Part shown: positions 53,901 through 56,900 of the stretch, piece after piece
Numbering within the stretch: position 1 is the first letter of the stretch
How the letters are laid out: every line of letters begins with the position of its first letter
Assembly: GCA_903813345.2 (NCBI GenBank)
Contig: CAIIXF020000001.1
Span: 27,466,001 to 27,530,000, forward strand
DNA length: 64,000 nucleotides
DNA from: Owenia fusiformis
Taxonomy: Eukaryota
Reading direction: 5' to 3'
Notes under the pieces: generated by a model
What the model was told of the DNA's origin: nothing
Database searches by the model: none
The model's input: the letters and a program-made list of their open reading frames with translations, nothing else
Program-made: the position numbers and the translations under genes

Positions 53901-56900
53901 CCAAATTGGCCTTTTCTCCGTGGAAGAATTCTAAAACAGGAGAATATTTGATATAAAAAGGATGGAAGAGATTTACAGACACAACCATTCCTGACATTTA
54001 CTGGCTGCATACTGTGATCATTATGTAGTTTTTCAAAATAAGTTGTAAATAATTGTATCAACTCACTCCAACATCCATGGTTTCATTACTACAGTTCAGT
54101 GTCGTGAATCCTCTGTATTGATGGGCCTGGTCCTTTGAGTTCTGGGATTCCTGGATCAAAGCCTGCATTTCAATTGTTCCAGCTTTAGTAGTTCGATCTT
54201 GCATCTGTTTGAGCACACTGTTTACACCGTCTTCCGTTCTTCCTTTGTAGCAGAAAAGACGTGGTGTCTTGTTGACATCATCGGTAGATCGTTTAGCAAG
54301 TGTCTTCCATTTCTTTCTTGCGCGCTCAAGTTTTGATATACTGGCACCAGTTGAAGTACTCGATCGTTGTCTAATGATTGGTTGATACTTAAAAGACCCG
54401 GATCTTTCGCGTTGCGTATCTGCAACAAAAGACCGTGCCCTTCTGCGCATTGTTGGTGAATGTGAAGATACTGCTCGTTCACGTTTGGGTGACTTCAAGA
54501 TTACATGAGCATTAGATCCGCCGAATCCAAAAGAATTGACACCAACTAGACCTCCATGCCAAGGTGTGTTCTTGTCAACAACTTCTAATCGATGGTCCTT
54601 TAGTCCATGTATATCAGGATTAGGGATACGGTAGTGTAGATTCCCTGGCAAAACATTTTCCTGCATTGCTATGACAACTTTCGCAAGTGCTGCTAGGGCT
54701 GAAATACGAATATAATATGAAACTATATCCTTAACACACATTTATGTTTTACACTTCAATGTGAAGTTGTAAAAAGCAAAGAAAACTACTCATGACACAA
54801 AGTACATTGAAGTACCTGATGCTGGTTCGGCATGTCCCATATTTGACTTGACGGAACCAATCATTAAAGGTGGCCCTCTTCTATCCTTACAGAACACATC
54901 GACCAGTGTGTTTAGTTCTTGTGGGTCGCCCACCTTTGTTCCGGTACCATGGGCCTCTACGTATGTTACTGTACCAGGGTTTATACCTGCCGACGTATAG
55001 ACCTCTTTCAAGAGAGCTTTCTGCAACTCTCCCGATGGATATGTTATGCCTGTAAGTGATCATAAAGGTGTAATCGTAATTGGAAAACTGATGAAATATG
55101 ATTGAAATGATTAAATTTTAATGTTTTACCTTGTTCTTTGTTACCATCGGAATTGGTTCCAGAATGGACAACCGTTGCATAGATTCGTTTTGCTCTGGAT
55201 TCTTTTTGTAAGTATATACAAACAACACCCTCGCTTCGCACATATCCATTGCCTATAAAACAACGTCAATGTAAATCAATTTAATTCCCCTATTGCACTT
55301 ATTCTAGGCTGTTGCATGTACATAAAAGTATTCCATAGTTATAACATAAAAAGGAAGTCAATACAACAACATATAACATCATAGAAAGATTATCAGAGCA
55401 TAACCATGAAATCACATTTGATATAAATATGTTATCCATCAGGAGTCGAAATCTGATTTAACTGAACAATGTAATTTGATGTGTTAGGAGCCATCCATTT
55501 ATTTTTTATTAATAACATCTGAGAAGTATATGTTCTACATAATATTTGTTTTCTTTTATATAATTAAAAGTTACTGGTATAGATTGCTTGCCTGATGCAT
55601 CAAACGCTTTGCATGCTCCATCGGGTGACAACATTCCGAGTTTCTGAAACTGTACAGAAGTCTGTGGACGGAGACATAGGTTAGATCCCCCTACTATTGC
55701 AGCATCACATTGGCCTGCCCGTATCGCCATCAAGGCTTGATCCAGCGCTACTAAGCTTGATGAGCAAGCAGTATCCAATGCATAACTTGGACCTGCAAAT
55801 AATTTGTGAATTAATCAGGATTCATTTTATACGACCCCAACACCAACGTATATACATATACATGCTATAAATTAAAAAAGCTCTTTATTAAACATATTCA
55901 AAGCTGAAAACTGGTACTCATAAATCTTAGGGATATAGATGAATCAGTCTGTGAAAACAATTCATTTCAAATTAAATCATACACTAATGAAATATTAACA
56001 CTTGACCCAACCTACCTTTAAAATCGAAGAAGTACGAGAGTCGGTTAGCAAACATATCTCTGGAGCAACCAGTCATCTCATATCCTACTATAGTGTCGGG
56101 ATCATGGGTCCATACATCCTGTGACTCTGATGACATTGTTCCTATATATACACCAGTCCTAGAGCCACGCACTGACTGAGGGGACACGCCTACGATATTC
56201 ATGACATTCCGTGGATTATCAAATGGGTGGAGAAAATGTATTCTTTAATCTGGCGTTTACCCTGATTGCCCGAGCTTTTATAGTAATATAATTTTTGAGA
56301 GTTTGGATGTTTATCCCATTTTTGTATCTTGCAAGGAACTCGAATAGATAAGATAGTGGAACCGTTTGGTTTAATTGATAGAAGTAACAGTACCACAAAG
56401 TCAGACCAAAAAGGCAACGCCCCTATTTACCTGCATCAATCAGTGTTTCATATGTCACCTCCAGCAACATGCGCAGTTGCGGATCCATAGCATGGGCTTG
56501 TTTTGGGGGAACGCCGAAATATTGCGCATCAAACTTTGTCAAGTCCTTCAGCTTTCCATTACGCTTAGGAAGTCCAAACATTCCTTAAATGTAGGGTCAG
56601 CGATACAAGAGTGAAAATTGGAAACAAAATGCAATTCCAATCAACCAATATGTTCAATTTTCATGCATTGGATCGGCCTTGGTGTATTTGGGAACTTATA
56701 ATGCAGGAATAATGTTCTTAAATTCCAAAATTATATTTTGAATATGAAACATGAAAAGGTGACTGTGGTAGGGATTCTTCAGAGGTAGGAAGGAACGAAC
56801 TTTAAATAAACTCAGTGCTGTACGAAACAAATGCGTCATTTGTATTGGCATATCTACCTGGTTGCCATCTTCTATCATCTTCCGTTACCATGTCAACACC

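Follow-up and report, generated by a model that had tools for sequence, protein, structure and literature searches.

How does a fatty acid synthase come to carry some sixty additional residues in a loop that is short in its relatives, are those residues translated, and could they serve a purpose? These questions are raised by a 64,000-nucleotide stretch of Owenia fusiformis DNA (assembly GCA_903813345.2, contig CAIIXF020000001.1, positions 27,466,001 to 27,530,000 of the forward strand; hereafter the window), which holds a gene for an animal type I fatty acid synthase (FASN). In this gene, the loop that joins the ketosynthase (KS) to the linker domain between KS and MAT is greatly enlarged. 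Judged from the sequence, the insert is a genuinely exonic addition of ~60 residues to the KS-to-linker loop. Tentatively, we take it for a polybasic Ser/Thr loop that is translated and confined to one lineage; it may plausibly accept phosphate from basophilic kinases at several sites and so switch charge-dependent interactions, and we consider a neutral insertion to be nearly as likely.

In other respects the gene is that of an ordinary animal type I fatty acid synthase (Table 1). Full-length invertebrate FASNs align with it colinearly at 45–48% identity (tblastn), and the domain order KS-MAT-DH-pseudo-KR-ER-KR-ACP-TE is complete on one polypeptide; Pfam matches on the exon translations run in detail from KS and KS_C through acyltransferase, polyketide synthase (PKS) dehydratase, FAS pseudo-KR, zinc-ADH-type enoyl reductase and KR to the phosphopantetheine-binding and thioesterase domains. 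The catalytic Cys and two His motifs of the KS, together with the MAT motif GHSVGE (containing the GHSxG serine), are present in the translations of minus-strand open reading frames (ORFs). The exon of interest begins after the acceptor TTTCAG/C at 54698, ends at the donor GGA/GTGAGT at 54066, contains no stop codon and encodes 210 residues (translation P0001 of the minus-strand exon 54698..54067), whose numbering we use throughout. Residues 1–68 close the ketosynthase and include its C-terminal extension; the family describing this extension, PF16197, matches the exon in two stretches (E = 1.6e-31), the best covering residues 25–84. From residue 145 onwards, the translation corresponds to the first strand and the helices of the KS-MAT linker domain. 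As to the architecture of the gene as a whole, one intron within the acyltransferase region (50254–52904, minus strand) measures ~2.65 kb, roughly tenfold more than the other introns (80–350 nt). Several of the short introns (54699–54815, 43914–44030, 42029–42169 and others) are in frame with their flanking exons, so that tblastn reads through them as single gapped high-scoring segment pairs containing stops, a trap for exon calling in this gene.

Between the two conserved blocks, the KS end runs without a break into a loop of 76 residues, all inside this single stop-free exon. The initial annotation of this locus, which had described an open frame of ~75 residues from the KS end to the linker, had quoted this peptide exactly, and its estimate of only ~15 residues for the mammalian loop agrees with the ~14 found in vertebrate matches. 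Loops of 14–18 residues in the relatives, compared with 76 here, leave ~60 residues as extra, and in all 14 exon-level relatives the alignment opens a gap of 60–61 columns opposite residues 78–137. We extended the comparison to 120 animal FASNs of full or nearly full length, drawn from molluscs, brachiopods, nemerteans, annelids, insects, rotifers and a hemichordate; they had been found by searching with a mollusc (clam) FASN and are ranked by their likeness to it. The distance from the KS-end histidine to the YRG motif is 129 in the window protein as against 60–78 in the 111 scorable animal FASNs: 107 gave values in this range, four gave 116–120 through misfires of the regular expression on variant motifs (their true distance being ~64–66 by eye), and nine of the 120 could not be matched and were left out.

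The insert also stands alone within its own gene. Measured against seven orthologues, it is the sole stop-free insertion of more than 20 residues, all other apparent insertions of that size holding stop codons and corresponding to introns. No protein aligned across the insert when the exon was queried against proteins of 369–2,000 and of 115–368 residues and, with HMMER, against 1.84 billion representatives. The best stretches in these matches end at query residues 67–130, the best 150 HMMER matches are crowded by multi-module PKSs, and the nearest fragments among the matches listed reach up to 71% identity, over the KS end only. By these comparisons the insertion is lineage-specific and unique among the relatives examined, in keeping with the initial annotation, which had called its proposed switch lineage-specific; it is missing from the 14 exon-level relatives and from the 111 scored FASNs alike.

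The position itself seems, from the aligned sequences, to be a permissive and recurrent insertion site. A rotifer FASN has ~13 extra residues in the same KS-to-linker loop, and six other sequences (P0238–P0242 and P0017) carry unrelated inserts of ~50–60 residues there, which are Ala/Gly/Pro-rich, not basic, and by eye hold no RxRxxS array. In P0129, P0158 and P0170, which are 59–71% identical over the KS end, homology stops 5–12 residues past that end; an intron may lie within the loop of these three, which would bear on the origin of the insert. Many lophotrochozoan FASNs share an HPA[AS] motif right before the RL strand of the linker domain, while the window protein has SHSPT early in the loop and nothing resembling HPA[AS] near PRL. 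This pattern suggests that the insertion point may lie just after the HPA[AS] motif.

The enlarged loop contains four RxRxxS/T motifs, as the initial annotation had reported, beginning at residues 72, 84, 96 and 109 and spaced by 12, 12 and 13 residues. When the 76-residue loop was shuffled 100,000 times, it contained 0.53 motifs on average and four or more with P = 0.00085; this value carries no correction for the fact that the motif was picked once the sequence had been seen. The two Arg and the Ser/Thr are kept in all four units, through both CGN and AGR codons, and the other positions share almost nothing. The full Akt consensus includes a bulky hydrophobic residue at +1. Of the Akt/S6K/RSK consensus proposed to occur four times, Arg at −5 and −3 is present at every site; at +1, Phe follows two of the four sites (S89 and S101) and Ser the other two.

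The DNA of the loop carries traces of a repeat. Its autocorrelation is 0.39 at a lag of 36 nt and 0.425 at a lag of 72 nt, compared with a codon-shuffle mean of 0.27; the lag-36 value has P = 0.001 taken alone and P = 0.052 as the best of 25 lags. Units 2 and 3 start with a 21-nt direct repeat whose copies lie 36 nt apart and are 71% identical. Tandem Repeats Finder reported nothing in the loop. The 36-nt periodicity is weak, and hints at an ancient tandem duplication of a 12-codon unit, with which it would fit. Across 118 relatives' loops, RxRxxS/T occurs in none (1.7 expected from shuffles), so the array is not an amplified ancestral site; the looser pattern [RK]x[RK]xx[ST] is found in 7 of the 118 (7.2 expected). 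Neither do searches of other kinds point to a source for the segment. Pfam assigned the insert to no family, whichever frame or strand was read (the best match, Luciferase_cat with E = 0.11, is taken as noise), and an ESM Atlas feature search with residues 69–144 returned only KS-extension clusters with scores of 0.76–0.83, below the level of a lead. A blastn-short comparison of the loop with the window gave only chance matches of at most 15 nt, and thus no second copy or transposon source within the window.

Structure prediction with AlphaFold2 gives the segment a two-part shape, in which a polybasic loop, disordered and rich in Ser/Thr, leads into a basic amphipathic helix. The model was built on a 44-sequence alignment in which no relative contributes to the helix columns. 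Predicted confidence (pLDDT) falls below 50 at residues 78–80 and 82–111, a range that takes in motifs 2 and 3 and the start of motif 4, between flanks that are modelled confidently. The predicted helix has a mean pLDDT of 85 for residues 121–130 and 73 for residues 131–140, a hydrophobic moment of ~0.5 and a net charge of +6 to +7. Across the whole loop, 21 residues are basic and 6 acidic, and F90, F102, Y104 and W130 are scattered among them. The modelled flanks find their counterparts in the KS-MAT condensing regions of EcPKS1/2 and of the mouse, human and pig FASNs. The loop sits at the KS-to-linker-domain junction of the condensing region, where it would be exposed to solvent; the location beside the KS-AT interface given in the initial annotation is borne out to that extent.

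Table 1. Positions in the window of the fatty acid synthase gene, the enlarged loop and the features within it.
Feature	Position	Strand	Basis or remark
Animal type I FASN gene, ~28 exons	41924..57083	minus	tblastn with full-length FASNs; Pfam on exon translations
Exon: KS C-terminal extension, long loop and first half of linker domain	54067..54698	minus	Splice sites, translation, PF16197
76-residue loop between KS end and first linker-domain strand (residues 69–144)	54265..54492	minus	Exon translation
Insertion proper, ~60 residues (78–137)	54286..54465	minus	Absent from all aligned relatives
Motif 1, RERAVS, residues 72–77; in the loop part alignable with relatives	54466..54483	minus	Pattern match
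Motif 2, RRRARS then F, residues 84–89; in repeat copy 54427–54447	54430..54447	minus	Full RxRxxS-hydrophobic form
Motif 3, RERSGS then F, residues 96–101; in repeat copy 54391–54411	54394..54411	minus	Full RxRxxS-hydrophobic form
Motif 4, RQRSST (RxRxxT), residues 109–114	54355..54372	minus	Pattern match
Candidate in-frame 63-nt exitron, weak	54420..54482	minus	Position weight matrix scores: donor 2.49, acceptor 5.23
Predicted basic amphipathic helix, residues 117–141, contains KKWK	54274..54348	minus	AlphaFold2
First strand of KS-MAT linker domain	54235..54264	minus	RL...GRT block aligned in all relatives; model strand E146–152

From these observations we sketch a tentative history and function. 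The insert probably lengthened as a ~12-codon unit starting with RxRxxS was locally duplicated. The resulting loop would most likely be phosphorylated at several sites by basophilic kinases, those of the AGC or CaMK group. Phosphate groups would cancel the loop's positive charge, and the loss of charge would in turn switch how the condensing wing interacts with a partner, be it a docking protein, an acidic surface or a membrane; such a putative phospho-switch would not act directly on KS chemistry.

Several points weigh against a functional kinase loop. The four motifs do not count as independent observations if duplication gave rise to the units, and with a hydrophobic +1 residue in only two of them the full Akt form is partial. 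The coding signature of the segment is also poor: its in-frame versus off-frame codon score is 1.7 compared with an exon mean of 15.8 (s.d. 5.1), a value so low that none of 117 exon windows equals it, whereas the +1 frame of the insert scores 7.3 and remains open for 90 codons (54222–54494, minus strand), with no Pfam match in that frame across the insert. GC content at third codon positions (GC3) is 0.28 in the insert versus 0.40 in the exons. The Arg/Ser/Lys-rich composition accounts for part of the missing codon periodicity, which would also follow if the segment were young or weakly constrained. Among the 120 FASNs retrieved with the mollusc query, there is no orthologue closer than ~48% identity. 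Finally, the unrelated inserts at the same loop would, on sequence, fit a neutral insertion equally well.

That last explanation is the closest competitor. It holds that slippage or tandem duplication in a tolerant surface loop produced a translated but functionless low-complexity segment rich in Arg, Ser and Lys, whose kinase-like motifs are by-products of its composition and of the copying of one unit. Much of the evidence suits it: loop length varies among animal FASNs and long inserts recur at this very place, the DNA has its 36-nt periodicity, codon usage leaves no signature and GC3 is low, and no relative examined shares the insert. What a neutral expansion accommodates less readily is a motif count above that of composition-matched shuffles (P = 0.00085), the retention of R, R and S/T in four units whose other positions have diverged beyond recognition, and a frame that stays open over 61 codons. 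Between these two accounts we lean, with little conviction, towards the translated kinase-acceptor loop.

A more elaborate model had been put forward in the initial annotation, namely an Akt/S6K/RSK phospho-switch combined with 14-3-3 docking and a Ca-calmodulin-binding helix, which together would couple FASN to insulin/TOR and Ca signalling. The four minimal RxRxxS/T motifs, two of them with Phe at +1, and the predicted basic amphipathic helix with its Trp and net charge of +6 to +7 speak for this model, but its two docking components fare badly and we regard the whole as improbable. The canonical calmodulin anchor classes 1-8-14, 1-5-8-14 and 1-5-10, as well as the IQ motif, are absent from the helix; the only classes matched are the loosest, 1-14 (I120–L133) and 1-12 (W130–V141), which ~35% of shuffles match as well. 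The calmodulin helix of myosin light-chain kinase (MLCK; 1-8-14 class), to which the segment had been likened, is similarly basic and amphipathic, with a Trp and a net positive charge, whereas the window helix is without anchors at 1, 8 and 14 (or 1, 5 and 10) and has acidic residues at +9 and +10 after the Trp. In the absence of MLCK-type anchors, the resemblance to the MLCK peptide is a lead and does not amount to membership. For 14-3-3 proteins, the strict mode I (RSxpSxP) and mode II (RxxxpSxP) patterns have no match, RSGSFK being without the Pro at +2. Full-text literature searches likewise turned up no report of calmodulin binding by FASN and none of a FASN that carries an insert of this kind.

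Each of the foregoing readings supposes that the segment is translated, and it is very probably part of the main protein product. Within one exon, its frame runs on unbroken into conserved coding sequence at either end, and only 12 of 2,674 intronic windows of 183 nt in the FASN gene are free of stops. Its GC content (0.44) compares with 0.43 in the exons and 0.31 in the introns. The exon-versus-intron triplet log-odds of the insert, 15.6, lies at the 26th percentile of 118 exon windows; the 88 intron windows all stay below it, even if each is scored in the best of its three frames.

By our estimate it is improbable that splicing takes all or part of the segment out of the mRNA, whether as an exitron or as an intron whose signals are unusual. 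We scored splice sites with position weight matrices derived from 22 of the 27 proposed FASN junctions, five ambiguous ones being dropped; on leave-one-out, 21 of the 22 donors score at least 5.1 (mean 7.3) and 20 of the 22 acceptors at least 5.2 (mean 7.4). The 63-nt exitron suggested in the initial annotation does exist as a GT-AG pair inside the coding exon, with a length that is a multiple of three (donor at 54482, AG at 54421-54420, exon resuming at 54419) and a fair acceptor of 5.23, but its donor, at 2.49, is below the 5.1 reached by 21 of the 22 true donors and its length below the 80 nt of the shortest curated intron. Removal of the whole insert would call on the donor GTATCT at 54471, which has in-frame partners taking out 168 or 204 nt; this donor scores −2.9 and the acceptors −8.6 or −3.1. 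The lack of codon periodicity in the insert would suit removal, as would the loss of homology past the KS end in P0129, P0158 and P0170, possibly owing to an intron in their loop, while an exon-like GC content and a frame without stops would not. Taken together, the splice-site scores make removal of the insert unlikely. Two further candidates were set aside. The sole in-frame pair with higher scores, 54551 to 54419, would take the invariant GFGG motif out with it. A U12-type intron with its donor at 54471, which matches the consensus at only six of eight positions in both the donor and the branch site and has its next AG 24 nt off, was judged unlikely.

Least probable of all, and by our estimate very improbable, is some other targeting or binding module, whether for acidic membranes, for nucleic acid or as a bipartite signal resembling those for nuclear localisation, from which Ser phosphorylation may release binding: the surplus of basic over acidic residues (21 versus 6) with F90, F102, Y104 and W130 between them, the KR at residues 71–72 followed after 11 residues by RRRAR (which fits the bipartite pattern) and the predicted amphipathic helix are all compatible with it, but such patterns are common in Arg/Lys-rich disordered segments and the feature is shared by no relative examined.

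Comparison with known structures sets the translated loop in relief. Animal type I FASNs (pig 2vz8/2vz9, human 3hhd and 8vf7, mouse 5my0) have the same domain order, and their KS end and linker align with the window protein in sequence and fold; they differ in having 14–18 loop residues where the window protein has ~60 more. The best Protein Data Bank matches for the exon, in both sequence and fold, are EcPKS1 and EcPKS2 (9cq1, 9cti and 9ctk), which are animal FAS-like polyketide synthases. In the EcPKS2 structure, 8 residues bridge the aligned blocks that are separated by 70 in the window protein, and the window gene further differs from these synthases in its ER-type and thioesterase exons, which liken it to a true FASN.

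Two further systems offer functional parallels for a kinase-acceptor loop. Target loops of basophilic kinases (Akt/S6K/RSK/SGK) in lipogenic enzymes are alike in placing an RxRxxS/T-type site in a flexible region, and ATP-citrate lyase (ACLY) has such a site. The segment here differs in offering four periodic candidate sites on FASN itself, in one lineage. For ACLY, the link from AKT is stated in the title and abstract of PMC6989638. Electrostatic-switch segments such as the MARCKS effector domain are likewise disordered stretches in which Arg/Lys clusters are mixed with Phe, Tyr, Trp and Ser; the likeness is one of composition. The kinase consensus is of another type, and the segment sits in an enzyme loop and not in a scaffold protein.

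FASN is mostly treated as controlled through transcription and protein stability. That one invertebrate lineage has wired acute signalling onto FASN, with four duplicated AGC-kinase sites and a basic helix serving as a phospho-controlled electrostatic or docking switch that would change partners, location or condensing-wing dynamics within minutes, strikes us as doubtful. If true, such a signalling switch would add to FASN control a mode that the literature searched does not describe for the mammalian enzyme. For mammalian FASN, a passage of PMC11571667 describes phosphorylation by GSK3-beta that promotes FBXW7-beta-mediated degradation, not an AGC-kinase loop, and treats acetylation and ubiquitination of FASN alongside this phospho-degron. 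A multi-site kinase loop at the condensing wing, if real, would provide a ready-made test of post-translational switching in a megasynthase, and a KS-to-linker loop that tolerates large insertions would help in the engineering of FAS and PKS enzymes that carry tags or sensors. If neutral, the insert is one more disordered expansion in a surface loop.

The window as a whole has a GC content of 35% and belongs to a scaffolded draft assembly; its sole gap, 500 N at 915..1414, is far from the FASN gene and accounts for the ORFs that appear open in all six frames at ~800–1490. Neighbouring ORFs lie at 33888–34529, 36199–36807 and 11193–11807 on the minus strand and at 31411–33136 and 8933–9649 on the plus strand. 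The domains recognised in the neighbouring ORFs are those of Cys-loop ligand-gated ion channels, glycosyltransferase family 92, VWA and Laminin_G_3 (concanavalin-like), and the neighbours of the FASN gene are ordinary animal genes.

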